64,000 bases of DNA, taken from positions 149,278 through 213,277 of the forward strand of contig CAZENT010000001.1 in NCBI GenBank assembly GCA_964513845.1, in the 5' to 3' direction. Made by a program: the position numbers and the translations under genes. The notes under the pieces are model-generated. The model saw nothing but the letters and a program-made list of their open reading frames with translations, had not been told where the DNA came from and did not search any database. Positions 2,208 through 62,574 of the stretch are shown in pieces. This DNA is from an uncultured Pseudomonadales bacterium. GTDB lineage: Bacteria > Patescibacteriota > Microgenomatia > UBA1400 > MFAQ01. Every line of letters starts with the position of its first letter. Position 1 is the first letter of the stretch.

Positions 2208-3278
2208 TTACTGTTTGCCTTTCAAAAGATTGTCGAGATATTTTTTGAGCGCAGACCAACTGTTGTCTTTGGGCATGAGAACCCATTCTCCTTTGTACTG
2301 TTTGGTAGGAGGATTGTAGAGAATGGTGAGACCATTTTCATCAGGCTGATCAGAGAAGGTAACAGAACGAACCGGATTATTCTTGGTTTCGAGAGCTATT
2401 TTGGCAAGAGTGGGATAGAGATTGTGACCAATATTGGTTTTTAGATTGCGATCTAATATGACAAAAAATGAGTCGAGTTTGTTTTTGTCGAGCAAAAAGT
2501 CAGGGGTGAGCATTTTTTGACGAAGAGCGGAAATGACTTGTTGTTGGCGTTTGGAACGAGCAAAGTCCGTACCCTCGTCGCCCACCGAGTGACGCGAACG
2601 AACAAACTTGAGAGAGGTTTCACCATCCAAATGAGCAGAACCCGTGGCGAAAGTAATGGATTCGTAACGAGAAGAAATTGGCATGGCGTTTTCTTTACCT
2701 AGAATTGGAAACTCGGAGTCAGTGAAGCCGGGGTTGACATCAACATCAATACCCCCAAGAAGATCAATGGTTTCTTTAAAAATAGTGAAGTTAACAATGG
2801 CCGTGTAGTGAATAGGAGTACCCAGATCTTCGAGAATGGCAGCCTCAGCCATCTGAATTCCGGCACCAGGACTAGCTTCTTCGCCGTAGTAATAAGCGGT
2901 GTTTATCTTGGCCTGAAGAGAAGGAACCCACAAATCACGAGGCACGCTAATCATAACCGGTGACTTGGTTTCGTGATTGTAGGAAAGAACAATTATGGTG
3001 TCAGCAAGATTGGGAGAGTCGGTGCCTTCCCCCCTTATACCAAGTAATAAAAAATTAGTGACACCATTGGTGTTATCCAGATTTTCGACAGGAGAACCAA
3101 AAAATCCAAGTAAATCTTGAGGTTTGACATGAAATCGAGAGAGGAGGTTGAAACCCTGAGCACCCAGCAAACCTAGGCCTGTCAGGAAAAGCAGAATCAA
3201 AAGAATGACAAGATGACGCCTTATAAAAGAGGCGAGGCGAATAAGAACCCTGACTGGTCTAATGTGGATTAGTTTCAT
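2208..3278 (-). CDS. LytR-CpsA-Psr (LCP) family cell-envelope glycopolymer phosphotransferase
   Basis: N-terminal TM anchor, then the LCP core LLLGIRGEGTDSPNLADTIIVLSYNHETKSPVMISVPRDLWV and the arginine-rich SRHSVGDEGTDFARSKRQQQV region. Confidence 0.85.
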   Translation of the reverse strand: MKLIHIRPVRVLIRLASFIRRHLVILLILLFLTGLGLLGAQGFNLLSRFHVKPQDLLGFFGSPVENLDNTNGVTNFLLLGIRGEGTDSPNLADTIIVLSYNHETKSPVMISVPRDLWVPSLQAKINTAYYYGEEASPGAGIQMAEAAILEDLGTPIHYTAIVNFTIFKETIDLLGGIDVDVNPGFTDSEFPILGKENAMPISSRYESITFATGSAHLDGETSLKFVRSRHSVGDEGTDFARSKRQQQVISALRQKMLTPDFLLDKNKLDSFFVILDRNLKTNIGHNLYPTLAKIALETKNNPVRSVTFSDQPDENGLTILYNPPTKQYKGEWVLMPKDNSWSALKKYLDNLLKGKQ

Positions 3279-3982
3279 TATGGAAGACTGTTGATGATGC
3301 CGGCAAAAAGAGTTGGCTCAAGACTGTCAGTGCCAACCAATACACCGTCGATACGATTTTGGTCAACAAAGGATTTGACGTTGTCGGCGGTGACAGAACC
3401 ACCGTACAAAACAGGGGCAAGATTGTCGATGAGGAAACTTATTTGATTAGTAACGTGATTGGCCTCAACGGGGTCAATGGGCTTCCCTGTGCCAATAGCG
3501 GCTATCGGCTCATAAACAAAGAAACAGCGAGAAACGTCGATATTCTTTTGGAAGAGTTCTTTGATTTGTTCATCAAGATAAGGAAGGTCGATGCAAACAA
3601 TGGGGGTGATGGAGTTCTCCAGAAGGAGTTTGGCTTTTTCGGCAACCATCTCACTGGTTTCGTTGAAATCGCGACGACGTTCGGAGTGGCCAACAATACA
3701 ATAACTGACCAATTCTCCAAGCATGTTGGCAGTGATTTCTCCGGTGTGTTTACCTGGAGCTAGATGAGAAACGTCTTGAGCACCGGTGATGATGGGAATT
3801 TCTAAGTCGGAGAGTTTGTGGTTAAAAGCAGCAATGTCAGTGAAAGGAAGACAAAGAATAACAGAAATGCCTGAAGAAAATTTAGGGTTAAGCGCTTGGA
3901 TGCCATCAATCCAGATTAATGACTCGGTGAGATTTTGATTACTTTTCCAGTTGCCAATAACGTACTTCATGGTTTGAGTCAA
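3278..3982 (-). CDS. tpiA: Triosephosphate isomerase
   Basis: VIGNWKSNQ N-terminus, the catalytic CIVGHSERR motif, and AYEPIAAIGTG with a Ser-for-Trp variant. Confidence 0.9.
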   Translation of the reverse strand: MTQTMKYVIGNWKSNQNLTESLIWIDGIQALNPKFSSGISVILCLPFTDIAAFNHKLSDLEIPIITGAQDVSHLAPGKHTGEITANMLGELVSYCIVGHSERRRDFNETSEMVAEKAKLLLENSITPIVCIDLPYLDEQIKELFQKNIDVSRCFFVYEPIAAIGTGKPIDPVEANHVTNQISFLIDNLAPVLYGGSVTADNVKSFVDQNRIDGVLVGTDSLEPTLFAGIINSLP

Positions 3983-4015
3983 TTATATGCTAAGTTTGCA
4001 ATACAATATATTGGA

Positions 4016-5932
4016 ATGAGTGATTTTTTAACAGGACTAAATGAGGAACAAAAAGAAGCGGTAACCTACGGAAAGGGACCACTTTTAATTTTGGCAGGGG
4101 CAGGCTCCGGAAAAACGAGAGTGTTAACTTACAGAACGGCATATTTAATCCAAGAAATGGGAGTGGAGCCGGAAAAAATTGCGTTACTGACTTTTACAAA
4201 CAAGGCGGCAGAGGAAATGAGACAAAGAGTAAAAAGCCTGGGAGGAAAAGCGGGAACTTTGGGTTTTTCGGGAACTTTCCATACTTTTTGCGCCAAGTTG
4301 TTACGTGAGTATGGCCCAAACGTGGGGGTGATGCCGAACTATGTGATATTTGATAGTGATGACTCGGAAGCAGCCATGAAGAAAGTACTTAAGGAGATGG
4401 ATATTGACCCAAAAGAAAGTAAGCCGGCAATGTTTTTGGCGGTAATTAGTAAAATGAAAAATGATTTGGTGAGTGTGACGGATGCCGAGACGACAGCTAG
4501 TGATTATTTCCGCCGAATGGTGGTAAAAGTGTGGAAAGCGTATCAAGACAAGTTACAAAAAAATAACGCGGTTGATTTTGATGATCTATTAGTTAAGGCC
4601 GTCGCATTATTAAAAATCGAGCGTATTAAAGAGGAGGTGAATAATCGGTTGGAATGGATTTTGGTGGATGAGTATCAAGACACAAACAAGGCACAGTTTG
4701 AGCTAACAAAGCATTTGGCTGGGAAAAAACAAAATATCACAGCGGTGGGTGACGCTGCTCAGGCAATTTATTCTTTTAGAGGAGCAGATTACCGTAATTT
4801 GGTGCTGTTTAAAAGCGAGTACCCGAAAGCGGCAATGGTAAGCCTGCCAATGAATTATCGATCGACACAAAATATTTTGGACACGGCTTACGGAGTGATT
4901 AGTCACAACACAACTCACCCAACGCTACATCTGGAAACCACAGAGGGGGCAGGAGAGATGGTAAGTATTTTTGAGGCTGGAGATGAGCGAGATGAAGCAA
5001 AATATGTGATTGAGCAGGCAAGAAAAATGTCAGAAGAGGATGGCGGGGTGGCAATTTTGTACAGAACAAATGCCCAGTCACGCGCTTTTGAAGACGAGCT
5101 GATGCGCCGAGATATCCCCTACAAATTGGTGGGTGGGTTGCGATTTTATAATCGCGCAGAAATTAAAGATTTGATCGCTTATTTGAGAATACTGAACAAT
5201 CCTGAAGAAGAAATCAGCCGAGGAAGAATTGAAAAATTAGGAAAGAGAAGAATGGAAACTTTTGACAGATGGCTTGAGAAAAAATCTAAAGAAGAGCGAG
5301 AAGAAAACCCGGGAAAATTGCTGGAGGAGATTATAAATGTGGTCGATTTCTTGGGAAGATTTGACGAAAGAGATGAAGATGATGTGGCCAGAATAGAAAA
5401 TATTAACGAACTTTTGGCTGTGGCTTCCGATTACAAAAATGTCGAGAAATTTTTGGAAAGTGCGGCTTTGGCCGAGTCGGATATCAAACAACACAAATCA
5501 AACGCCAAAATTACTTTGATGACGGTACACGCAGCCAAGGGGTTGGAGTTCGAAAATGTTTTTGTGGTCGGATTAGAAGAAGGATTGTTCCCCCATTCTC
5601 GTTCAATGCTTTCCGGTGAAAAAGAAGAAATTGAAGAGGAGCGACGCTTGGTATATGTAGCCATGACACGAGCAAAAAAAATCCTAACGTTGTCTTGGGC
5701 GAGAAACCGTCTGGTTTTTGGAGGACGTCATTCTTCAATTCCGTCGCGATTTTTGTCCGAAATTCCAGAAAATTTGTTGAAAAAAATAGGAGGGGTTCGG
5801 GAAGTGGAAAGAAAAATGTCCAAACCGGCACCAGAAATGGATGAGTTTGGAGAAAAGAAAAGAATAATTGTGCAAGACTGGGAAATTGCCGAAGCCACAA
5901 AGGATGATTTTGCCGAGATTGATAATTGGTAA
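4016..5932 (+). CDS. pcrA: ATP-dependent DNA helicase PcrA/UvrD (SF1)
   Basis: Carries GAGSGKTRVLTYR (motif I), VDEYQDTN (motif II), SFRGAD and YRSTQNIL. The ORF-track start at 3935 overlaps the tpiA 3' end; the ATG at 4016 (MSDFLTGLNEEQKEAV) is the likelier start. Confidence 0.85.
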   Translation: MSDFLTGLNEEQKEAVTYGKGPLLILAGAGSGKTRVLTYRTAYLIQEMGVEPEKIALLTFTNKAAEEMRQRVKSLGGKAGTLGFSGTFHTFCAKLLREYGPNVGVMPNYVIFDSDDSEAAMKKVLKEMDIDPKESKPAMFLAVISKMKNDLVSVTDAETTASDYFRRMVVKVWKAYQDKLQKNNAVDFDDLLVKAVALLKIERIKEEVNNRLEWILVDEYQDTNKAQFELTKHLAGKKQNITAVGDAAQAIYSFRGADYRNLVLFKSEYPKAAMVSLPMNYRSTQNILDTAYGVISHNTTHPTLHLETTEGAGEMVSIFEAGDERDEAKYVIEQARKMSEEDGGVAILYRTNAQSRAFEDELMRRDIPYKLVGGLRFYNRAEIKDLIAYLRILNNPEEEISRGRIEKLGKRRMETFDRWLEKKSKEEREENPGKLLEEIINVVDFLGRFDERDEDDVARIENINELLAVASDYKNVEKFLESAALAESDIKQHKSNAKITLMTVHAAKGLEFENVFVVGLEEGLFPHSRSMLSGEKEEIEEERRLVYVAMTRAKKILTLSWARNRLVFGGRHSSIPSRFLSEIPENLLKKIGGVREVERKMSKPAPEMDEFGEKKRIIVQDWEIAEATKDDFAEIDNW

Positions 5933-11038: not shown

Positions 11039-11707
11039 ATGACATATTTTAACCGAGGTGGAGGTGACAGTCGATCCCAATTTTATAGTCCAAGAGAAGG
11101 TTTTGGATCAAGAGGTAATGACAGAGGATCTGAGAGAAAAGAGATGTTTGACGCAGTGTGCGCCAAATGTGGCTCAGCTTGTCAGGTTCCTTTTAAACCA
11201 AATGGCAGAAAAGAAGTTTTTTGTAGTAAATGTTTTGGTGAAATGAACGGTGAAGAACCTCGTGGTGGTGGAAATAGATTTGAGAGTAGAGGCAATGACA
11301 GAGGTTTTGGAGACAGACCAAGGTTCGACAAACCCATGTTCAGTGCTATTTGTGATGAATGTGGAGATAACTGCCAAGTTCCTTTTGAACCAAGAAATGG
11401 CAAACCAGTTCTTTGTAGTGATTGTTTCGCTAAAAAGGATGGTGGAAGAGACTTTGCTCCAAGATCATTCTCACCTTCAGCCAGACCAGCAAACACTTCC
11501 AGCAATATTGATCTTAGTGAACTATGTGCCAAATTGGACAAAATCATTAAATTGCTTACTCCTGAGTCTCCCAAGAATATAACTGAGAAAATAATTGAAG
11601 AGATTGAAGCCAGTTCCGGAAAAGAAGTGGTTGCTCCTAAGAAAAAGGCTAAGAAAGCCACATCCTCCAAAGGCGGATTGAGTACAAAGAAAATCGTAAA
11701 AGAATAA
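11039..11707 (+). CDS. Tandem CxxC-x17-CxxC zinc-ribbon-like repeat protein with a Lys-rich C-terminus
   Basis: Two ~85-aa repeats, each RGNDRG ... MF(D/S)A(V/I)C(A/D)(K/E)CG..CQVPF(K/E)P..G(K/R)..(F/L)CS.CF. The C-terminus KKKAKKATSSKGGLSTKKIVKE looks nucleic-acid-binding. Confidence 0.6.
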   Translation: MTYFNRGGGDSRSQFYSPREGFGSRGNDRGSERKEMFDAVCAKCGSACQVPFKPNGRKEVFCSKCFGEMNGEEPRGGGNRFESRGNDRGFGDRPRFDKPMFSAICDECGDNCQVPFEPRNGKPVLCSDCFAKKDGGRDFAPRSFSPSARPANTSSNIDLSELCAKLDKIIKLLTPESPKNITEKIIEEIEASSGKEVVAPKKKAKKATSSKGGLSTKKIVKE

Positions 11708-11771: not shown

Positions 11772-12449
11772 CTATCTCTTTCTAATTATTTTGCTGAGAA
11801 TGAACAGCGCTCCTATGATGACAAGATTGAGAAGAATACTGGCACAGATAGTTTTCCATAAAATGTCGAGGATGGTCCAGACAAAGGAGTTGGAGCTAAG
11901 AAAAATTTGAAAACCAAAATACCAAGCGGCTAAAGCGACAACTAGAGAAATAATCACAAAGGGAAGAGCTTGTTTGATATCTGGCCAACTGGGAAAGAAG
12001 GAGTTGGCGATGGTGAAGAATAAATAACCTTCAAGAAGAACAATCCAGTAATTACCGGAAAAATAACTTGTCTGAATCAAAGAAGCAAGCCAGATTAAAA
12101 GAGCAATGCCAGTAATAAAAGGGGCGATGCCAACGAGAAATCCTCTAATCGGATTGAGCTTTTGGGTCTGAACGGAGCCTAGAGCCACGCTAGTATGATT
12201 ATCATTTTCTTCATCTAAATACTCGGGGAATATTTCGATTTTGCCCGTGCGAGCTCCTGTAAGAGCTGCGACAAGAAAATGGGAAATCTCATGAACAATT
12301 GTGCCGGGAAGAAAAATGATACTCCAGATAACAATGGCTGAGTGTTGACTGCCTCCAAGCCGATGAACAAGTCGGGAAATATCGGTGGTCATTTGCTTTT
12401 TGGTAAGAAAAAGACCAAGGAGAGATAGAATTACAAAAAGTAGAGGCAT
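11772..12449 (-). CDS. Integral membrane HExxH protein (putative DUF3267-like zincin metallopeptidase)
   Basis: Six or so TM helices; VHEISHFLVAALTG carries an HExxH motif on the first cytoplasmic loop/TM boundary. Confidence 0.4.
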   Translation of the reverse strand: MPLLFVILSLLGLFLTKKQMTTDISRLVHRLGGSQHSAIVIWSIIFLPGTIVHEISHFLVAALTGARTGKIEIFPEYLDEENDNHTSVALGSVQTQKLNPIRGFLVGIAPFITGIALLIWLASLIQTSYFSGNYWIVLLEGYLFFTIANSFFPSWPDIKQALPFVIISLVVALAAWYFGFQIFLSSNSFVWTILDILWKTICASILLNLVIIGALFILSKIIRKR

Positions 12450-12470
12450 TAATTAATTCTATATCACCTA

Positions 12471-12501
12471 TTGACCTTCCAGTTACTGGAAGGTGTATAG
12501 T
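12471..12501 (+). promoter_or_regulatory. MerR-type promoter: -35 TTGACC, 19-bp spacer containing the perfect dyad CTTCCAGT-T-ACTGGAAG, -10 TATAGT
   Basis: TTGACC (12471-12476), 19-nt spacer (12477-12495), TATAGT (12496-12501). The MerR-family ORF starts 8 nt downstream. A 19-bp spacer with an internal dyad is the hallmark of MerR-regulated promoters. Confidence 0.65.
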
Positions 12502-12508
12502 CGTTTAA

Positions 12509-12919
12509 ATGAAGAAATATTCTATTGGACAAGTGGCAGAAATAACCGGACTTTCGACAAAAACGTTACGTTTTTATGAAGAAAATGAAATTATTGAGAG
12601 CGCTTCGCGTAAGGAAAACGGATACCGATATTTTTCTGAAGAAAATTTAGATGAAATTAAGCTTATTAAATATGCCAAAGATCTAGGATTGCCTCTTTCG
12701 GAAATCAAAAAACTAATGATCGGCTGTACAGGCGGAGATTGCAAACAGACAAAAGCATATAACGAAAAAGTAATTGGTGATTATGTGGCGTTGTTGACCG
12801 AGAGAATAAAACAGATGGAAATATTAAGAAAGAGATTGCGAGAGGTACAAAAAAATGGACCATATTGCTGTGATGTTCTTCAACAATTATCAATTAACAA
12901 TGGAAAGCGAGGTGAATAA
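12509..12919 (+). CDS. MerR-family transcriptional regulator, metal-sensor type (Cys73, Cys78, Cys120, Cys121)
   Basis: N-terminal wHTH MKKYSIGQVAEITGLSTKTLRFYEE, a coiled-coil dimerisation helix, and C-terminal Cys pairs (CTGGDC ... PYCCD) placed as in the metal-binding loops of ZntR/CueR/MerR. Confidence 0.8.
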   Translation: MKKYSIGQVAEITGLSTKTLRFYEENEIIESASRKENGYRYFSEENLDEIKLIKYAKDLGLPLSEIKKLMIGCTGGDCKQTKAYNEKVIGDYVALLTERIKQMEILRKRLREVQKNGPYCCDVLQQLSINNGKRGE

Positions 12920-12922
12920 TAT

Positions 12923-12985
12923 ATGAAAAACTGTACATGCTGTGGCAGTGAGTGCAAATGTGGAGATTGTAAGTGCGGTAAGTAA
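12923..12985 (+). CDS. 20-codon Cys-rich micro-ORF MKNCTCCGSECKCGDCKCGK (metallothionein-like peptide); absent from the ORF track because of its size
   Basis: ATG at 12923 lies 4 nt after the MerR stop, preceded by GAGGTGA (SD-like) 8 nt upstream. 7 Cys in 20 aa in C-x-C / C-C arrangements typical of metallothioneins. Confidence 0.45.
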   Translation: MKNCTCCGSECKCGDCKCGK

Positions 12986-13122
12986 GATTTGTTGACGCTT
13001 GGTCCGCGGCTGAGCGTCAAAGAGTCGTGGAGAATTTTGATAAGTATTGTGGACGCAGGCGATTCTTCGTCTGATTCTTGGTAGGCTAGCCTTGCGTGGA
13101 TTTTAGAAGCTAACTTGCTTGA

Positions 13123-13710
13123 TTATTGTATTCCAAAATCAATTTTTCTTTGTTCAATAATTTTATTTTCAATTTCGGGATTGTAAATCGCTTCGACTTC
13201 GAGGAGAGAAGAAAATGTCTGAGCAATACAAAGGTATTTATCCCGACTTGGAAAGTCAAAATACTTGACCGAAAGATTTTCATGTACAAAGGGCTTAAGT
13301 TTTTGATCTTTGGAAAAATTAAAGAAAATGGCGACAGTTTCTTGACGGTTTTTGTGAAGCAGATAAGTTAAAGAGAGCCAAATAACTTTGGCCATCCGGG
13401 CAAGATCACAGTAAACTGTAATTTTGTCTGTGGAATTAATTGTTCGAGAGACAAATTCTAAATTTTGTGGAGTGGTGAGTGACTGGTCTTCTAGTTCAAC
13501 CAATATTCCTGGATTGAGTTTGATAATGTAGTTGCGAACTGTCTCTGCTTCGGATATTTCCGGGGATTTGCTGTTTGTGTGGCCACCACAAACGATAATT
13601 TTTTCGACCTGGTTTTCTTGAGTTTCTTTGACAACCATTTCGACATATTGTCGGTATTCTTGATTTGACTCTTCAAATACTCCGTAACAGAGCAAGATGT
13701 TTATTTTCAT
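13123..13710 (-). CDS. DUF218 (YdcF/ElyC/SanA-like) domain protein
   Basis: MKINILLCYGVF ... EKIIVCGGHTNSKSPEISEAETVRNYII fits the DUF218 core. The M31 start at 13710 avoids overlap with the upstream gene end. Confidence 0.6.
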   Translation of the reverse strand: MKINILLCYGVFEESNQEYRQYVEMVVKETQENQVEKIIVCGGHTNSKSPEISEAETVRNYIIKLNPGILVELEDQSLTTPQNLEFVSRTINSTDKITVYCDLARMAKVIWLSLTYLLHKNRQETVAIFFNFSKDQKLKPFVHENLSVKYFDFPSRDKYLCIAQTFSSLLEVEAIYNPEIENKIIEQRKIDFGIQ

Positions 13711-13787: not shown

Positions 13788-16787
13788 CTATCTTTGGCAA
13801 TGACTTTTAAACGGACAGGTGGCACATTTGGTGAAGTCTTCGGTACGGGTGAAGTCCAGGTCGCGGATCTTAGCAACAGAGTCTTTGATTTCTTTTTTTA
13901 GATTGGTGACATCTTCATCGGAGATAATGAAATTTTCTCGGTGGAAATTATTTTGGGCATCGGGCTCAAGGAAGTCTATCTGCGTTTCTTTAACTTCGTA
14001 CTGAAAAGATTTATCCAGCTCGGCCAAAAGCTGGTAGAAAGTGAGCTGACGTTTGTAATCGCCGTCGGAGTTCTTGGTGTTGCCTTCTATTTCATTTCTG
14101 GTTTTGGATTTTCCTGTTTTGTAATCGATGACACGAACGTGATTGTTGGTATGAGATTGCTTCGTCGTCCCTACTCCTCGCAATGACGGAGTCGTGTACT
14201 CGATGCGGTCAACTTTGCCAGTAAGAGCAATATCATCGAGATGAATTTGAGAAGTGAGAGAGGTGCCGAAGTTTTTTTCGGTAAAAAGACAGGCTGTGAA
14301 ATCTTTGGCATAGTGATCGTAATATGCGGTGAGAACTTTTTTACCATGAGCGAGGCGATCTTTGAAATCGGTTTCGGTCATGATTTCTCTTTGGAGAGCG
14401 GCTTCAAAATCATTGAGGAAAATTTCTTTTGGTTCTAATTTGCCATTATTTAGCTCTCTATACAGCTGCTCAAGGGCGTAGTGAACGGCGGTACCGAAAC
14501 ACATGGCCGGAGCTTTAGCTCTCGGGATCCTGTAGAGATTATCGAGCTTGAATTTATAGTGACAGCGGAGATATGTATTGAGGGAGGTTGGGGAAAACTT
14601 GAGGTCTTTGACTATTTCTCGCAGATACTCGGCTTCGCCATCGTGAAGAGTGACTTCGGCGGCTGGAGACATAAGGGAGGCGAGAATTTTGGTGGCGGCA
14701 CTTTCGAATTTTTTGGTGTCCACTTTTTCAATATTTTCTTTCGGCAAGTCTTCAAGGAACATTGCAGGAAAAATCATTTTTGCAGAGTTTGGATACTCGG
14801 TAGAGCCGGTGAGGTAAAGATTTTGTTTGGCTCTTGTGAGGGCTACATAAAAGAGACGGCGTTCTTCGGCATTCTTATCCTCCTTATCGGTATCTTCGTA
14901 AACGATAATGCCGTCGGGGAGCTTAATCATTTCTCTTTTGGCTTTGTTGCCCCAGTGAGTATCGGCAAAACGATATATGTAAACAGTATGCCACTCGAGA
15001 CCTTTGGCTTTGTGGGCAGTGGTGAGGGTGACAGCGTTTTCATTACCAATGAGGACTTGCTCCTCGAGCTTTAGGCTATTCTCCTCCATGATGCCCAGGT
15101 TATAGACGTAACCAAAAAGATCGAGATTGGGAAAAGAAGCAGACTGAGATTTGACGTCGTCAAAGAGAGTGCCGAAACGATTGAGTTCGATGATGGGCTG
15201 GGGAAGGCTCAAAATATATTCGAGAATCCCCGACTCTTGAAGAATCATCTGGAACATTTCAGGGAGAGTGTGGGTAGCAGCTTTGGAATTCCAAGATACA
15301 AATTTGAGATACGCCTCGACGACTTTATCGTCAAGCTCAGGATGATCGGACTGGAGAGAATCTACTAGGGATTTTCTTTCTTGATGAGCAGCTCTACTAA
15401 TTTTGAGAATGGAAAGTGGATTGAGATGAAAATAGGGATAGTTTAATACGGTAAAGAGGTCGAGATCATCGACAGTGTTGTGCAGAGTCGTGGTTACTCT
15501 TAAAATTTTGAGAAACTGGCTGACAAGAGGGGTGGCCAAAATATTGGTGCCACCTTCGAGGCGATATGGAATGTTTTTTTGTTTGAATAAATTGACCAAG
15601 ATATCGACGTCTTTGTTTTCTTTGACTATCACTGCAAAACCTTTGGGGCTTGCCCCCTTTTCAATTTTTTCTTGGATGTCACTCGTTATGAATTCGTCCT
15701 CAAGAATGGTGGAGCTAAACTCGACGGTTTTGATTTTCTGATCTTTCAAATCGGTATTGGAGTGGAGGGCAGTTTCTCCCAAGAGCGCGGCGGCGGAGTC
15801 GAGAATGGTTTGGGTGGAACGATAGCTTTGATCGAGAACTATTTTGGTGTGACCAGGGAAGGATTTTTCAAATTCGCGAACATTTTCTTTGCTGGCGCCC
15901 TGGAAACGGAAAATACTTTGATTAGGGTCTCCGACCGCAAAGATATTGGCATTTTCTCCCCAAAAACTGGCAAGAGCGAAGATGAGGCGGTTTTGGGCCG
16001 AGTTGGTGTCTTGATATTCATCGACTAAAAGATACTGGAATTTTTCTTGGTAACCCAAGAGAAAATCGGCGTCTTTTTCAAAGGCTTCGACAACCCAGTT
16101 GATCATGTCATTGAAATCAAATCTGCCTAATGACGTCAGTTTGTTTTGATATTTTTCGTAAATATCTAAGAGATCGAGATTTTTGCCAACTAGTTTTTCT
16201 TTCTCGAGACGAGCAGTTTTGCTGAGATTGTCTTTTTCAATTTCATATTCGTCTTTGAGAAGTGAAACCAGTTGCGAGTATTTTTCGATGGTGAAGCCCT
16301 CGCGCTTAAGGTCGGAGATACTACTTAAGATGTAGGGGAGATAAAAGAGGGTGTCACCTATGGGTTTTAAGAGGACGAAGTTTCCCTGCTGCAAAATTTC
16401 TTGGATAATTTGAATCTTTTCTAGATCGGTGACGTTTTGCATACCGGCAGGCTTACTAAATCTCTCTGGATTTTGGGCAATAACATCGGCGCAAAAAGCA
16501 TGAAAAGTGGTGACTTGGACAAGATAGCCGTCTTTACCAATTAGTTTGATGAGACGCTCACGCATTTCTTTGGTGGCCGCTTCGGTAAAGGTGAGGGCAA
16601 GGATGGAGCTGGGGTCAGTGTCAGTTTCTTTGAGAATATTGGCAATTCTGGTGGTGAGAACTTGGGTTTTGCCTGTGCCTGGACCTGCGAGAACCAAAAC
16701 AGGACCCTCGATAGTATCGACAGCTTTTCTTTGCGCGTCGTTTAATTTTTTATACACTGAGTCAAATTCGAGAGTGGTTTGAGGCAT
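13788..16787 (-). CDS. UvrD-like SF1 helicase fused to a C-terminal PD-(D/E)xK nuclease with a Cas4/AddB-type 4-Cys Fe-S cluster
   Basis: N-terminus AGPGTGKTQVLTTR, VDEYQDTN, SFRFQGAS, YRSTQTIL. C-terminal ~250 aa carry RCHYKF ... VIDYKTGKSK (D/ExK) ... CATCPFKSHC (C-x_n-CxxC-x5-C). Confidence 0.8.
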   Translation of the reverse strand: MPQTTLEFDSVYKKLNDAQRKAVDTIEGPVLVLAGPGTGKTQVLTTRIANILKETDTDPSSILALTFTEAATKEMRERLIKLIGKDGYLVQVTTFHAFCADVIAQNPERFSKPAGMQNVTDLEKIQIIQEILQQGNFVLLKPIGDTLFYLPYILSSISDLKREGFTIEKYSQLVSLLKDEYEIEKDNLSKTARLEKEKLVGKNLDLLDIYEKYQNKLTSLGRFDFNDMINWVVEAFEKDADFLLGYQEKFQYLLVDEYQDTNSAQNRLIFALASFWGENANIFAVGDPNQSIFRFQGASKENVREFEKSFPGHTKIVLDQSYRSTQTILDSAAALLGETALHSNTDLKDQKIKTVEFSSTILEDEFITSDIQEKIEKGASPKGFAVIVKENKDVDILVNLFKQKNIPYRLEGGTNILATPLVSQFLKILRVTTTLHNTVDDLDLFTVLNYPYFHLNPLSILKISRAAHQERKSLVDSLQSDHPELDDKVVEAYLKFVSWNSKAATHTLPEMFQMILQESGILEYILSLPQPIIELNRFGTLFDDVKSQSASFPNLDLFGYVYNLGIMEENSLKLEEQVLIGNENAVTLTTAHKAKGLEWHTVYIYRFADTHWGNKAKREMIKLPDGIIVYEDTDKEDKNAEERRLFYVALTRAKQNLYLTGSTEYPNSAKMIFPAMFLEDLPKENIEKVDTKKFESAATKILASLMSPAAEVTLHDGEAEYLREIVKDLKFSPTSLNTYLRCHYKFKLDNLYRIPRAKAPAMCFGTAVHYALEQLYRELNNGKLEPKEIFLNDFEAALQREIMTETDFKDRLAHGKKVLTAYYDHYAKDFTACLFTEKNFGTSLTSQIHLDDIALTGKVDRIEYTTPSLRGVGTTKQSHTNNHVRVIDYKTGKSKTRNEIEGNTKNSDGDYKRQLTFYQLLAELDKSFQYEVKETQIDFLEPDAQNNFHRENFIISDEDVTNLKKEIKDSVAKIRDLDFTRTEDFTKCATCPFKSHCQR

Positions 16788-57976: not shown

Positions 57977-60721
57977 TTATGGAACAACTGCCCACATTCG
58001 GAATAGTTTGTATGATGTATCAAGAGTGTGAATATAGTTTTCACCCATCCATGGATCCATAGTGGTTATTTGATTTCCTTCGTGGGCGACGATGACCAGA
58101 AGATGCCCACACCATCCTCCACCACAAGCCATATCACCTGTTGCTAAAATCATGCCACAGTTCGAGAGAACGCTGTCAGCTTCGGCAAGATCTGATCCGA
58201 TATCGGTAACTGAAAGTCCACTTTCGGAAAGAATTTTTAAAGAGTTAAAATTGTCTGACCCACAAGAAACGTAAGGTATTTTGCCATCATAGACACGTGG
58301 TGGAGAATTGCTATCCCAGTAAACATATCCTCCGATTGAGTGTTGCCAATGCCAGACATCAGTAACATTTGAAGTTACACCAAAGCCGTTTAAAATCATG
58401 GTCATAGAAGCACTACTACAACCTGATGACCCAATTCGACAACTGCCAGCTGGTGAACAGTTTTTACAAAAAACGCCTGCCCATTCGGGGTCTCTTTGTG
58501 AAATAAAAATTCCTTCGGTATTAGCACAACCTGTGGCAGAGGTACGAGTTTTTGGAATTGATTCGAGTTGAACAAGAGTAGAAATAAGGGGGGCGACAAC
58601 AATGGAAGAAACATAAAAGAAGAAACCTACAAGTACGCCTAAAACAAGAGTGCCCACAGCAGAACTGGCGGCGGTTGTTGTGGCGGAACCGATTCCGGAA
58701 AAAAATTTGGATACTGCTGAAACAGCACCAACAACAGGAACGATGAGAACATCTCTAGTTTTAATTTTTTCACCATAGACAGAAACAGCTACTTTTTGAA
58801 CGACATTGACAGTTCCTTTTATGACAGAGAGAATAATGTCTCCAACAAGCCAGATTATAGCAGGAATAGCACCAACTCCTGTTGCTGCAAGACCAAATTT
58901 TGCACCAATACTGACTGCCAGTTTGGATAGAGCTTTCCCAAGACCTTTTTTTGTAAGTTCGGTGGCGATTTTCGTTCCGGCTTTAATGGCTGCTTTTCCT
59001 GCCGTAGAAGAAAGAATTTTTTTAACAACATAGTCACCTACTTTTTTGCCAACCCACGATCTAACGGCACCAATAGGATCTTCAACTATTCGAAAAATAT
59101 TGCCAAAAACAACGGGGAATTTGTCAGATATTTTTGAGAAAAATTTTGTGACAGGTTGAGTTAATTTTGTCCAACCAGTGATAATTTTATTAATATTTTT
59201 TCCTATAGGAGTGTTTGCGAATTTTCCAAGCACAACAGGCACTTTGGTGATTTCTTTTCCTAAAGGTGAGTTGGCAATTCTTCTGATCTGAGTGCCGGCT
59301 GCATCAAATAAATCCTTATTGGATTTGAAAAGTTTACCAAGTTCTGATTCGGGATTGTTTTTTGCGTAGAGACGGGCTTTGGCAAGTAAGGTTGGGGTGA
59401 GCCCTTTGCCGTATAAAAGGATAGCTTGGGGAGAAAGATCGGGATCTTGAGTTTTGGAATTAGTTACTAAAGCAGCGGACATCTCGGCTTGATAGCCGGC
59501 GTGAGCATTTAGCTCTCCAGGCATGTTGTGACGAATCGCTGCTTCTAGAAGCGCTGCGTCGTCGAGAGAAGAAAATAGGCGCGGCTGAACACCATTGTTT
59601 TCGAGATTGGAATGAATGGAGATAAAGACATTGTTGGCGAGCTCAATTCGATCGAGAGTGTCAGGGTCTTTTGATAGTCTTGTTTGACTGTCTTTATTAA
59701 ATTCTTGAAAAGCGACAGCTTGATTGTCAACAAAGACATCGAGTTGTTTGGGAAGATTTTCTATTTTTTGAGCAAGTTTTTGATTTGTTTCGGTGAGAGT
59801 TTTAATCTGAATAAGTTTGATTTCCAGATCTACGACTATATTTTGTTTGACTTCTTCTGCGTATTTTAAGAGAATAATTTCGTTTTCAGCAATTTGAGCA
59901 GTTAGGGTGGCTGCTTGTGTGGTTTGAGTATTGACCGCGTCGTAGACAGAGTGAACAAAATTTGAAGAAATTTTAGATAGATTTTTTTGATCTTCGGCTG
60001 ATAAATCTGAGATGTTAATCAATAGTGAGGCGGATTGAATGGCAACATCAATATTGGTAACACAAATGGAGTTTAGCTCCACAGCCTCTTCGATGATTCT
60101 GTTTTGCGCTTCTACAGATAACTTTAAAAAGCTTTCATGAGTAAGAGCAACTTCTCTCACTGCTGCGTAAGAAGCAGCTAAAGCAGTTTTTTTTGAGTCT
60201 GATTTTGGAGAACCAAGCGAGATTAATACTTTATCTGCGTCTTGAAACTTTTCTCCTCTGGCTTGTCTTTTTTGTTTGTTAAGAAGAGCTTTTTGCTTTA
60301 TCTTTGAATGGGCAATAGCTATTTTGACCTGTTCGGCAACCGATCTCTGAGAGTTTGATTTTATCTCTTCGCTTTCGAGAAGGGCTTTGTTTTTCTCGTA
60401 CTCAGCAACTAAAGACTCGAGTTCTGGGGGAATGGAGGCTTCGGGTTTTGTTTCCTCTTCTTCGTTAAGAGAATTGAGTTTAATTATTAGCTTTTCGATT
60501 TCACCTGAGCCGGCAATATATTTTTGAAAAGAGTAGACGTCGATTATTCTAGGATCAATACGATCATCAGGGAAAAATTTAGGCCAGTATCCTTCATACA
60601 ACGAATAAGCTTTGTTTAGAATTTTTAAAATTCTAGAATTTAGTTTGTCTTCTGAAACAGCCAAATACGAAAGAGAGTTCTTTAGATCCTTAATGTCTTG
60701 CGAATAATCATTTTTTGCCAT
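57977..60721 (-). CDS. T4SS-associated membrane protein with a C-terminal papain-like cysteine peptidase domain (C39-like/CHAP-like); PrgK/TcpG-type cell-wall hydrolase analog
   Basis: Coiled-coil N-domain (~560 aa), amphipathic Lys-rich repeats, 2 or more TMs near residues 600-700, and a C-terminal domain with candidate catalytic Cys (GSSGCSSASMTMIL) and His (GGWCGHLLVIVAHEG). Confidence 0.5.
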   Translation of the reverse strand: MAKNDYSQDIKDLKNSLSYLAVSEDKLNSRILKILNKAYSLYEGYWPKFFPDDRIDPRIIDVYSFQKYIAGSGEIEKLIIKLNSLNEEEETKPEASIPPELESLVAEYEKNKALLESEEIKSNSQRSVAEQVKIAIAHSKIKQKALLNKQKRQARGEKFQDADKVLISLGSPKSDSKKTALAASYAAVREVALTHESFLKLSVEAQNRIIEEAVELNSICVTNIDVAIQSASLLINISDLSAEDQKNLSKISSNFVHSVYDAVNTQTTQAATLTAQIAENEIILLKYAEEVKQNIVVDLEIKLIQIKTLTETNQKLAQKIENLPKQLDVFVDNQAVAFQEFNKDSQTRLSKDPDTLDRIELANNVFISIHSNLENNGVQPRLFSSLDDAALLEAAIRHNMPGELNAHAGYQAEMSAALVTNSKTQDPDLSPQAILLYGKGLTPTLLAKARLYAKNNPESELGKLFKSNKDLFDAAGTQIRRIANSPLGKEITKVPVVLGKFANTPIGKNINKIITGWTKLTQPVTKFFSKISDKFPVVFGNIFRIVEDPIGAVRSWVGKKVGDYVVKKILSSTAGKAAIKAGTKIATELTKKGLGKALSKLAVSIGAKFGLAATGVGAIPAIIWLVGDIILSVIKGTVNVVQKVAVSVYGEKIKTRDVLIVPVVGAVSAVSKFFSGIGSATTTAASSAVGTLVLGVLVGFFFYVSSIVVAPLISTLVQLESIPKTRTSATGCANTEGIFISQRDPEWAGVFCKNCSPAGSCRIGSSGCSSASMTMILNGFGVTSNVTDVWHWQHSIGGYVYWDSNSPPRVYDGKIPYVSCGSDNFNSLKILSESGLSVTDIGSDLAEADSVLSNCGMILATGDMACGGGWCGHLLVIVAHEGNQITTMDPWMGENYIHTLDTSYKLFRMWAVVP

Positions 60722-60726
60722 ATCAG

Positions 60727-62574
60727 TTACAAAGATTCTGCTTGTTGTTTGCGTGCTTCGAGTACTTCTGAAGGCTTGGTAGTGGAAAGAGCGTGTTCGT
60801 CTGGGGAGGAGATTACTTTGATGGCAACATGATTTTGTCCGGCAAAGAAAATACCTTCTCCGACACCGGCTGAAACTAAAAGTTGTTTTTCTCCTTGGGA
60901 GAGATAGAAAACTTCGGCTATTTGATTGATAGCGGCTGAAGATTGTTTGAGAAGGAATTTGAGGGCAGAGTTGGTAATGATGGCTTTACCATAGGGAGAG
61001 GCTAAAAAGTCGTCAACGTTTTGAGAGATGACAGTAACACCAAGATAGTATTTACGGGCACGCTTGACAAAACCTTGGAGAATCTTGGCAGAGTCTTCGT
61101 AGCGCATAAGATACCAGGCCTCATCTACAATGAGCATGCGTTTACGAAGATTTTTGCGTATTTCTGTCCAGACAAAGTCAAGAATCATAAACATAACGAT
61201 AGGACGAATCTCATCAGCAAGATCGCGCATGGAAAAAACTGTAATAGGAGCATCGATATCGATATTTGATTGCTGATCGAAAGTGCCTTTGATACCGCCC
61301 ATGACGTATCGCTCTAGTCTGGCAGCTAGTACCTTGGCTGTTTGATCTTCCATACCGATGATGGCACGGTAAAGATCTTCCATACGAGGAGGTTCTTGGG
61401 TGTGTGTGGCAGGATCATCAGTGATGTTTTTCTGACGATAGGTGAGAACGAGGGCGCGATTCATGGTGGCCTCTTCCATGGGGGACATGGCACCAATCAT
61501 GATTTTAAGTAAGGAAATGAGGAAAAGATATTTGTAGCCCATTTCATCTTCAGTGCTTTCTAAAGGCCTCGCAATTTGAAACGGATTAATTTTGTGGGGA
61601 GAGTTGGCAGAAAAAGAAATGTAGTTTCCGCCTACGGCTTTGGTGACCATTTCATATTCGTTTTCCGGATCGAGAATGATGATTTGGGTGTCAAACATTA
61701 AAGAGCGAAGAATTTCTAGCTTAACGGCATAGGACTTACCGGCACCGGCTGTGGCCAGAACGAGCATGTTGGCGTTTTCGAGAGAGAAACGATCGAAAAT
61801 AATGAGAGAGTCGTTGTGAGCATTGATTCCGTAAAGAATACCTTGGTTGTCTGAAAGTTCGGAGCTAGTGAAGGGAAAGGTGGTGGATAGAGCAGTTGTG
61901 TCCATGTTTCTTGTGATCATCAGCTTGTCTTTGCAGTATGGAAGAGTAGTTTTGAAGGCATCCTCCATAGAGAGTGAGGCGACTTTGCTGATAATGAGCA
62001 GAGAAGCGAGCATGCTTTGAACCTGAGAAGTGACAGTGTTGAGCTCTTTTTCGGACTCGGCAGAGATACTGATGTAAAGAGAAAACTGGAAAAAGCGTTC
62101 GGCACCTTTGACTAGCTGTGCCTGAAGTGTTTTAGCGTCTTCTAAAGCCGCTTCGGTGGCGGCTTGGGGAATACGACCTCTTTCGATGTCAGTGTTAATC
62201 TCGGCTTCCATTTCGGCCAGGCGACGCCTGAGGCTATCAAGAGTGTCTTTGGAGTCACTAGGATAGATGTACATGGAGATATCAAGAGAGTGATTGAAGT
62301 TTACGAGAGGAGCAAGCCAGTTGGCGGAAACATAACGAGGGTAACCAGTGACAAAAAGAGTGCGAATGTAGTTGTCGTCAATCTTGATAAAAGAAAAATC
62401 AACTTCGATGGAGGAGGGAGCTAAAACATCTTGAATTGAAGCGGCGTTGGTAGTGTCTTTGATGGCCGAAAGAGGAGCTCTGGGCTTTTCTTCAGTTGAT
62501 GTGACAGGAGCCGCCGAGACAACGGGTGGTGTTTCGGTCTTTTTGGCACCAAGAGAAAAGAGATTTAACCCCAT
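60727..62574 (-). CDS. virB4: VirB4/TrbE/CagE-family T4SS ATPase (C-terminal about three quarters)
   Basis: CagE_TrbE_VirB region (YIRTLFVTGYPRYV), Walker A LATAGAGKSY, Walker B MLIVDEAWYLM, and DPENEYEM. Confidence 0.8.
   Translation of the reverse strand: MGLNLFSLGAKKTETPPVVSAAPVTSTEEKPRAPLSAIKDTTNAASIQDVLAPSSIEVDFSFIKIDDNYIRTLFVTGYPRYVSANWLAPLVNFNHSLDISMYIYPSDSKDTLDSLRRRLAEMEAEINTDIERGRIPQAATEAALEDAKTLQAQLVKGAERFFQFSLYISISAESEKELNTVTSQVQSMLASLLIISKVASLSMEDAFKTTLPYCKDKLMITRNMDTTALSTTFPFTSSELSDNQGILYGINAHNDSLIIFDRFSLENANMLVLATAGAGKSYAVKLEILRSLMFDTQIIILDPENEYEMVTKAVGGNYISFSANSPHKINPFQIARPLESTEDEMGYKYLFLISLLKIMIGAMSPMEEATMNRALVLTYRQKNITDDPATHTQEPPRMEDLYRAIIGMEDQTAKVLAARLERYVMGGIKGTFDQQSNIDIDAPITVFSMRDLADEIRPIVMFMILDFVWTEIRKNLRKRMLIVDEAWYLMRYEDSAKILQGFVKRARKYYLGVTVISQNVDDFLASPYGKAIITNSALKFLLKQSSAAINQIAEVFYLSQGEKQLLVSAGVGEGIFFAGQNHVAIKVISSPDEHALSTTKPSEVLEARKQQAESL

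Follow-up and report, generated by a model that had tools for sequence, protein, structure and literature searches.

A MerR-type regulatory module with a copper-type operator and a cysteine-rich micro-ORF: a probable mini metal-buffering system found mostly in Candidate Phyla Radiation bacteria

Does a DNA segment of about 550 bp, carrying a promoter, a gene of the MerR family, a cysteine-rich micro-open reading frame (micro-ORF) and a hairpin, represent a metal-responsive switch together with its output, and which metal would it sense? The question is raised by the locus at positions 12471-13020 of a 64-kb stretch of contig CAZENT010000001.1 (assembly GCA_964513845.1), the whole of which was analysed and is referred to below as the window. 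An earlier, sequence-only reading had described here a TTGACC-19 nt-TATAGT promoter with a perfect dyad, followed by genes for a MerR regulator and a Cys-rich peptide of 20 amino acids (aa); the promoter was found where it had been placed, with a dyad longer than had been written, and both ORFs are present, at 12509-12919 and 12923-12985. Related loci were collected from three sources, namely, species-representative genomes, metagenomes and contigs encoding specific homologues. The 28 distinct loci so obtained, which span 41-90% in MerR identity, are mostly from bacteria of the Candidate Phyla Radiation (CPR). The promoter, the short distance from the -10 box to the ATG, the Shine-Dalgarno (SD) sequence and the Cys-rich ORF are kept in all 28 of these loci, and the hairpin in 26. 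As the module recurs in 28 distinct related loci, a genuine and so far undescribed mini system of metal buffering is the probable interpretation. The sequence-only reading depended on the presence of the promoter and dyad at orthologous loci and on conservation of the micro-ORF with synonymous variation; promoter and dyad were present in all of these loci, and the micro-ORF was in frame in every related locus examined.

The promoter was read directly from the sequence as a -35 hexamer TTGACC (12471..12476, + strand) and a -10 hexamer TATAGT (12496..12501, + strand), located 19 nt 3' of the -35 box. Inside the 19-nt spacer lies the MerR operator (12474..12494, no strand assigned), a perfect dyad ACCTTCCAGT-T-ACTGGAAGGT, the arms of which pair at 10 of 10 positions (10+1+10). 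The dyad occurs once in the 64-kb window with up to three mismatches allowed, a search that yielded no second operator, and no matches were obtained in 100 shuffles. Each fetched related locus likewise contains one operator, in 1-12 kb of DNA per locus.

Promoters activated by MerR proteins are known to have a spacer of 19-20 bp that separates the -35 box from the -10 box, with the regulator palindrome within it; the copper signal of HmrR, ACCTTCCAG-(3)-CTGGAAGG, and the CueR signal, ACCTTCCC-(5)-TGGAAGGT, were both described in promoters with 19-bp spacers (PMC1526738). The window operator, written as ACCTTCCAG-TTA-CTGGAAGGT, is an exact match to the published HmrR copper signal and agrees with the common CueR/HmrR pattern ACCTTCC(C/A)(G)-N-(C)(T/G)GGAAGGT. 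A by-eye comparison with the printed duplex of the Escherichia coli copA promoter PcopA (PMC7317920) showed for the window promoter an identical -35 box and the same base at 15 of 19 spacer positions. By its match to the published signals, the window operator is specifically of the copper (CueR/HmrR) type. This identity had been overlooked by the sequence-only reading, as had the conserved hairpin at the 3' end of the module. Activation from this promoter by the metal-bound regulator would be expected by analogy with the MerR family.

The same promoter architecture was found in the relatives. The -35 box TTGAC[ACT] is kept in 28 of 28 distinct related loci (by pattern scoring, in some by eye), and all 28 have TAnAnT-like -10 boxes. 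The window and all 23 loci scored by pattern matching have a spacer of exactly 19 nt that encloses the dyad; the same length was established by eye in the other five (L023, L027, L106-L108). In the 23 scored loci, 6-10 of the 10 arm pairs of the dyad are kept, at least seven in all but one. At arm position 3, a compensatory change from C..G to A..T (ACC...GGT to ACA...TGT) was found. Among the fetched loci there are also classical CueR-like genes with the same box and without the micro-ORF (L080).

The merR-family gene (12509..12919, + strand; TAA stop at 12917-12919) encodes a protein of 136 aa, identified by Pfam and NCBIfam matches; Pfam gave MerR_1 (9e-20), MerR (1.5e-14) and MerR-DNA-bind (1.7e-7). 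A profile built from 51 family members and compared with PDB structures matched CueR best (5e-25), then MerR (6e-21) and CadR (9e-20). The AlphaFold2 (AF2) model of the regulator, with a predicted local distance difference test (pLDDT) score of 83.6, has the MerR fold with a long helix 82-116 and a short helix 123-129; the top Foldseek matches of the model were NmlR, MtaN, CadR and CueR, all with probability 1.00. The architecture typical of the family, namely, a winged helix-turn-helix, a dimerisation helix and a C-terminal effector region, is present.

The regulator contains four cysteines, C73, C78, C120 and C121. The sequence-only reading had taken all four for C-terminal residues placed like the metal ligands of ZntR and CueR, which did not hold. 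In the AF2 model, C73 and C78 are located in the loop preceding the dimerisation helix 82-116, and only C120 and C121 follow it, in the loop between this helix and the short C-terminal helix, i.e., at the usual position of the metal loop. Profile alignment to solved structures placed C121 opposite C120 of CueR and C123 of MerR, which makes it the sole match to a canonical ligand; an equivalent of C112 of CueR is missing in the window clade. C73, C78 and C121 are invariant in the family, C120 and H80 nearly invariant, and C73, C78 and H80 are family-specific additions. The metal loop is shortened in the window clade (QKN----GPYCC), so that the pair of loop cysteines with which CueR binds Cu(I) linearly (C112 and C120) is incomplete; the more distant half of the family has a C-x5-7-CC loop.

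In the same profile alignment, Ser or Thr at position 81 of the family (T81 in the window) aligns with S77 of CueR and C79 of Bacillus megaterium MerR. This position is a known discriminator between +1 and +2 ions, and Ser/Thr here is CueR-like, not ZntR-like. Of the ZntR ligand set, which we take to be C79, C114, C115, H119 and C124, with C79 presumably corresponding to C79 of MerR by homology, the window regulator has Thr at the C79 position and a vicinal CC, with no counterpart of H119 or C124. Scores against the equivalog models were 69.0 bits (cutoff 147.4) for TIGR02044 and 55.9 (cutoff 244) for PRK10227, the two models of CueR, and 72.6 bits (cutoff 167.95) for TIGR02043 and 75.3 (cutoff 143) for PRK09514, the two models of ZntR. 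Judging by these comparisons, the predicted sensor resembles CueR in how it recognises DNA and in its discriminator residue, and has a non-canonical, thiol-richer metal site.

The ATG of merR is located 7 nt 3' of the -10 box and has no SD sequence. In 22 of the 23 loci scored, this distance is 6-9 nt, and the merR start there also lacks an SD sequence. The short distance and the missing SD sequence suggest that the merR mRNA is leaderless. In several homologues (P0034, P0044, P0049, P0077, P0024), automatic gene calls run merR upstream through its own operator, which is translated as '...LDIPVTGRC...'; this start-site error of gene callers is systematic and frequent, and its probable cause is the leaderless arrangement.

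The situation at the start of the micro-ORF is different. The SD sequence GAGGTGA (12909..12915, + strand) had been noticed by the sequence-only reading in front of the micro-ORF, and it is indeed there; its position after the merR stop was misjudged, since it is embedded in the last merR codons, encoding the 'GE' tail. The micro-ORF itself (12923..12985, + strand; stop TAA at 12983-12985) begins with an ATG 3 nt past the merR stop, is in frame with merR and encodes the peptide MKNCTCCGSECKCGDCKCGK of 20 aa, including 7 Cys. A search of all six frames of the window for ORFs of 8-60 aa containing 4 or more Cys, with Cys making up 20% or more of the residues, gave this ORF only. In the related loci, a GGAGGTGA-like SD sequence, encoded in the conserved 'KGGE' tail of MerR, lies 5-9 nt 5' of the micro-ORF start, and the start either overlaps the merR stop as ATGA or lies a few bases beyond it. 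The SD sequence is present in all loci, both in the 24 with a separate micro-ORF and in the 4 in which it is fused to MerR. The four in-frame fusions (L094, L099, L101 and L102) lack the merR stop and retain the internal SD sequence and ATG; P0249 is a further MerR-peptide fusion. Read-through of the stop codon was considered as a general route of joining and rejected, since the two genes are in other frames in most loci (ATGA overlap, +5, +10).

The peptides of the family are 5-22 aa long, rich in Cys and Gly, contain 2-7 Cys, and most of them end in CxC or CC. Over 24 peptides, Cys accounts for 34% and Gly for 19% of the residues, and aromatic residues and His for no more than 1% each; one more of the short members is MNGGCCGGGSCC. 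Nine pairs of micro-ORFs were compared, each pair showing 1-8 codons changed synonymously, many of them by TGT/TGC swaps; these and other synonymous swaps dominate the changes between relatives, and Cys was replaced in no case. Residues other than Cys change quickly between relatives; a pair of regulators with 90% identity is followed by the peptides MKNCTCCGSECKCGDCKCGK and MINCECEEKCGCGSDCKC. These codon comparisons demonstrate purifying selection on the cysteines of the predicted peptide. Frame, start, stop and SD sequence are conserved and synonymous changes are in excess at constrained residues, as is characteristic of a protein-coding small ORF. The fetched loci contain 46 further MerR genes, none of which is followed by such a Cys-rich ORF (0/46); this establishes the predicted peptide as specific to this MerR clade. 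Both this control and the natural fusions add weight to the module as read. In locus L108 (4470-4560), the micro-ORF is reduced to MGPCC (5 aa) and the merR frame reaches into the hairpin; either the copy has decayed or it hints at the terminal CC as the minimal functional unit.

By composition, the peptides correspond to the operational description of metallothioneins (small size, at least 20-30% Cys in CxC, CC and CxxC, few aromatic residues and His). No match of the Cys-rich part at E<=10 was obtained in Pfam and NCBIfam for four CPR peptides, a doubled fused tail, three peptides of the sister clade described below and two fusions, and the SmtA/BmtA profile (Pfam Metallothio_Pro) was matched by none of the peptides or fused tails. 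The sequence-only reading had predicted that standard gene callers would miss the micro-ORF, and it was left uncalled in every CPR-type locus for which gene calls were returned.

Behind the micro-ORF, a hairpin with an 11-bp stem, TTGACGCTTGG-T-CCGCGG-CTGAGCGTCAA, was found at 12992..13020 (+ strand; dG -22.4 kcal/mol, z = -4.3). The same architecture is present in 23 of the 25 loci scored and, by eye, in L106-L108, i.e., in 26 of 28. The hairpin starts 7-15 nt past the micro-ORF stop in nearly all loci; further examples are located at 673-703 in L012, 5496-5526 in L103, 6528-6558 in L094 and in others. The MAFFT alignment of the hairpins was gapped, and pairs were counted instead in an ungapped register centred on the loop. 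The stem is 11-12 bp long across loci and covaries, with 4-6 pair types per position; in register, 85% of positions pair, versus 30-49% with one arm slid, although the register was the one that maximised complementarity and is therefore somewhat favoured by this count. The loop of 7 nt consists of one unpaired T, A or G and a GC-rich palindromic hexamer; the hexamers CGCGCG, CCGCGG, GCGCGC, GCTAGC, TCGCGA, GGCGCC and GTCGAC differ between clades and are always palindromic. A strict hairpin scan gave 17 hairpins directly after micro-ORFs versus 7 weak hits in the remaining 183 kb. The interpretation as a terminator or repeat that is generic in this genome was rejected, with one strong instance in 64 kb. 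A run of T follows the hairpin in some loci only (e.g., L103 and L001) and not in the window, where the hairpin was left uncalled by the terminator scanner because no U-run follows. Only chance-level matches were obtained in Rfam, both for the whole window at the gathering threshold and for 12400-13150 at E<=10. The hairpin is taken to be a putative 3' end of the transcript or its stabiliser. The palindromic loop is unexpected for a plain terminator and recalls the dimerisation sites of kissing loops.

The window GroEL shares 92-93% identity with proteins under the names Candidatus Collierbacteria and Microgenomates group bacterium, and the GC content of the window is 41%; by the GroEL match, the window originates from a CPR/Patescibacteria genome (Collierbacteria-like). 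The bacterium lives in groundwater and has a tiny genome. The distribution of the module is wider. A sister clade with the same layout was found in soil metagenomes (L031-L036, L109-L111; P0383-P0395), with 67% GC and MerR proteins 32-37% identical. Its promoter is TTGACC-19 nt-TACGCT or TAGGGT, of the CueR-box type, merR is presumably leaderless, its ATG being located 6 nt past the -10 box, and the MerR tail ends in 'KGGD' with the SD sequence inside. The small ORFs of this clade encode 32-40 aa, with an invariant 15-residue core CCDCDCGPDCPPDCC, a variable acidic/hydrophobic N-terminus and about 10 Cys. They are present in protein databases only as 'hypothetical protein', and in each case there is an overlap with the end of a 156-aa MerR gene. 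The hairpin type described above is absent from the sister clade. The same layout in this high-GC clade indicates that the module is older and wider than CPR.

Some taxonomic labels of related loci appear questionable. Locus L106 (GCA_035477615.1, labelled Spirochaetia bacterium) has the window gene order FemAB, UDG, zf_Tbcl_2, MerR, UvrD-like helicase; judged by this shared order, the label Spirochaetia seems to stem from an error in binning or labelling. Doubt also attaches to the Pseudomonadales labels of L001 and L002, as the module is otherwise seen in CPR-named genomes.

Taken together, the module is best read as an autoregulated copper-type MerR switch with a gene-encoded mini-metallothionein as its output, to which a probability of about 55% is assigned. 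According to this reading, a MerR dimer would occupy the CueR/HmrR-type dyad within the over-long 19-bp spacer and, after binding a thiophilic soft metal, most likely Cu(I), would untwist the promoter and turn on transcription, as in other members of the family. The transcript would begin at or next to the merR ATG, and it is proposed that the regulator is for this reason poorly translated, as a leaderless message. The strong SD sequence in the last merR codons would provide for efficient, often ATGA-coupled translation of the Cys/Gly-rich peptide, which, alone or as an oligomer, would take up the metal in thiolate clusters and lower its free concentration. The decrease in free metal would return MerR to the repressing state, closing a negative feedback loop, and the 3' hairpin would terminate and/or stabilise the short transcript. 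The peptide is the only visible non-regulator product of this promoter in the 1-12 kb per locus, given the single operator and the unrelated or convergent neighbours.

A bolder extension of this reading, which is offered tentatively, is that the peptides may form an undescribed cross-phylum family of mini-metallothioneins, the sole output of a CueR-like sensor, with 5-22 aa in CPR and 32-40 aa in high-GC bacteria (CCDCDCGPDCPPDCC core). They might then be the smallest gene-encoded metal-thiolate peptides, taking the place of glutathione or phytochelatin in genomes about 1 Mb in size, and the hairpin loop might serve for RNA-RNA kissing or for binding of a dimeric factor.

Several observations weigh against the copper switch with a mini-metallothionein output. 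Metal binding and buffering by the peptide are suggested only by composition and context, and the transcription and translation of the module only by its sequence. The metal site of the regulator is non-canonical, without the C112 equivalent of CueR in the window clade and with the extra residues C73, C78, C120 and H80. The NCBIfam scores are far under every equivalog cutoff, and ZntR (75 bits) scores slightly above CueR (69), which leaves the identity of the metal uncertain. Very short peptides exist, such as MGPCC (5 aa), MAPCCANESCC (11 aa) and MKDPTSCPGGCC (12 aa), which could bind metal only as oligomers. Fusion of the peptide to a transcription factor limits the buffering capacity unless internal initiation occurs. 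The search for operators covered the window and the fetched loci, and further members of the regulon, e.g., an efflux pump, may be encoded elsewhere. The self-complementary loop of the hairpin does not fit a simple terminator role, and the hairpin has no consistent U-run behind it.

In the main rival explanation, unlikely by itself, the peptide would serve MerR as a detachable sensor tail or metallochaperone, delivering or stripping the metal and setting the threshold or reset of the switch, and not as a bulk buffer. The four independent fusions and P0249 place the peptide at the MerR C-terminus beside the metal loop, translational coupling through the ATGA overlap fits roughly 1:1 production, and the CC-ending short versions (MGPCC, MAPCCANESCC) are better suited to a tail that donates ligands than to a metallothionein that forms clusters; for the C-terminal CCHH of E. 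coli CueR, it was proposed that it gives the bound metal extra cysteines (PMC7317920). However, the strong SD sequence of the peptide, set against the SD-less start of merR, predicts an excess of the peptide, the 6-7 Cys of the longer peptides and about 10 in the sister clade are more than one sensor site needs, and even the fusions retain their own SD sequence and ATG. Considerably less probable is the sensing of thiol, redox or electrophile stress or of an Fe-S signal, with the peptide as a sacrificial or buffering thiol in organisms lacking glutathione. A peptide with 34% Cys would be a good thiol reservoir, and the four conserved Cys and His of the regulator could carry a cluster or disulfides, as in SoxR and NmlR, both of which are among the matches. 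The operator, however, is the copper-type CueR/HmrR signal and no SoxR or NmlR box, CueR, MerR and CadR give the best matches by sequence and by profile, the SoxR motif CX2CXCX5C was sought in the regulator and is absent, and the CxC, CC and CxxC spacing with Gly and without aromatic residues is typical of metal-thiolate clusters by the established criteria for metallothioneins.

Two further explanations assign the peptide a role other than handling metal. It is improbable, to a slightly greater degree than redox sensing, that translation of the micro-ORF matters and not its product, i.e., that a ribosome on the Cys codons controls the hairpin and thereby termination or stability, as in an attenuator-like sensor of cysteine or Cys-tRNA. 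The start of the hairpin 7-15 nt past the stop is within reach of the terminating ribosome, the peptide evolves fast outside Cys (MKNCTCCGSECKCGDCKCGK versus MINCECEEKCGCGSDCKC beside 90%-identical regulators), and a 5-aa version exists. A leader-peptide attenuator would need a gene to attenuate and alternative hairpins, yet no conserved co-directional downstream gene was found, the neighbours are convergent or unrelated, and there is a single hairpin only, of a type absent from the sister clade; the in-frame fusions and the invariant 15-residue sister-clade core argue for a functional protein product. Least credible of all is a precursor role, with a modified or secreted product such as a ribosomally synthesised and post-translationally modified peptide (RiPP) or a signal. 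The acidic/hydrophobic N-terminal segment and Cys-rich core of the sister-clade peptides superficially resemble a leader plus core, but the conserved part is the core and not the leader, the CPR peptides have no leader, and no maturase, radical S-adenosylmethionine enzyme, protease or exporter is conserved nearby in any locus.

The copper switch with a mini-metallothionein output resembles several known systems in part. With CueR/HmrR and their copA-type promoters (COG0789), it shares the operator in a 19-bp spacer, the MerR fold, C121 corresponding to C120 of CueR and Ser/Thr at the S77 position. Unlike them, its target is the regulator's own operon with the micro-ORF and not a divergent efflux ATPase or oxidase gene, and merR is SD-less and starts 6-9 nt past the -10 box. 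In Streptomyces, TipAL/TipAS are expressed from an autoregulated MerR-type promoter, and an internal start gives an excess of the ligand-sequestering C-terminal domain. Here, too, the MerR promoter with a 19-bp spacer would be autoregulated and one transcript would yield the regulator and a presumably more abundant small ligand-binding moiety, the latter from its own start and ribosome-binding site, and the four fused loci reproduce the layout with an in-frame internal start. In contrast, the ligand of TipAS is a thiopeptide antibiotic, TipAS is a folded domain of about 17 kDa and not a peptide of 5-22 aa, and the ORFs of the module are mostly separate.

Known metallothioneins include SmtA/BmtA of about 55 aa, controlled by SmtB of the ArsR type, mycobacterial MymT of 53 aa and the Cu-thionein of Neurospora of 25 aa; to our knowledge, 5-22 aa is below any described gene-encoded metallothionein. 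The likeness consists in a Cys content of about one-third, in CxC, CC and CxxC motifs split by Gly, Ser, Asn, Asp and Lys, in the near absence of aromatic residues and in presumably metal-induced expression. There is no sequence homology, however, and the peptide of the module would be controlled by MerR and translationally coupled to it. In Pseudomonas aeruginosa, CadR activates the gene of Zrd, a small zinc-ribbon protein with two Cys4 sites, which was proposed to sequester the inducing metal (PMC12301328). In both cases a MerR-family metal sensor activates, or is predicted to activate, a small Cys-rich protein; Zrd differs in being folded, with mononuclear sites, and in being encoded at a separate locus, with no translational coupling to the regulator. 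The CCHH motif of E. coli CueR is likewise a Cys-rich extension just past the metal region, proposed as a thiolate donor, and the CxC-rich tails of the fused variants are at the same end; the tail of the module is far richer in Cys and usually is encoded separately, with a strong ribosome-binding site of its own.

In the literature searched on MerR proteins with metallothioneins or small ORFs, on metallothioneins of CPR and on Cys-rich peptides following MerR, no description of the module was found. The peptide family has no match in Pfam, NCBIfam or the literature, and the hairpin none in Rfam. If the peptide binds metal, it would be the shortest class of gene-encoded metallothioneins, and the module would be a complete metal-homeostasis circuit of sensor and effector in about 550 bp. 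Such a circuit would be useful as a minimal model of metal buffering, a compact biosensor or a chelator part, and would show a way in which copper or other soft metals may be dealt with by the ultra-small genomes of CPR. The micro-ORF is also a clear case of a conserved functional gene missed by standard callers, and the natural split and fused forms are a ready-made evolutionary experiment on the coupling of regulator and effector.

Genes downstream of the module are convergent in the window and in L092, L094 and L101-L103; at the other loci they are unrelated. The possibility that a third conserved gene follows the module was considered and rejected, as the ORFs there are unrelated between lineages. 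A gene of metal efflux or transport was sought by Pfam in the ten largest ORFs of the window, and none was found. Two unrelated loci have cupredoxin-like genes at distances within 3-5 kb from the module, at 384-812 in L103 and 6995-7468 in L107; no second operator was found beside them.

In Collierbacteria-like genomes, the MerR module is adjoined by a gene for a Cys4 zinc-finger protein with two treble clefs (zf_Tbcl_2, 8e-32), which is located upstream in some of them, including the window (11039-11707, + strand), and immediately downstream in others; in L012 it starts from 733, in L015 from 3039, and in L106 it occupies 3167-3829. The adjacency may reflect nothing more than synteny, or else a functional tie to metal handling. 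The divergent upstream neighbour in the window (11772-12449, - strand) encodes a predicted membrane protein of 225 aa with an HEISH motif and faint similarity to peptidase M50 (E 0.03), and adjoins merR only in the closest relatives (L092, L095).

Two UvrD-family helicases are encoded in the window, at 13788-16787 (- strand) and 3935-5932 (+ strand). The L092 homologue of the 999-aa UvrD-family helicase has a C-terminal PDDEXK nuclease domain (AddB-like). At 57977-62574 (- strand), a TraG/VirB4-like P-loop ATPase of 615 aa (TraG P-loop, 1e-28) is encoded beside an ORF of 914 aa without a Pfam match; possibly, this CPR genome has here a locus for type IV secretion or a conjugation-like process.

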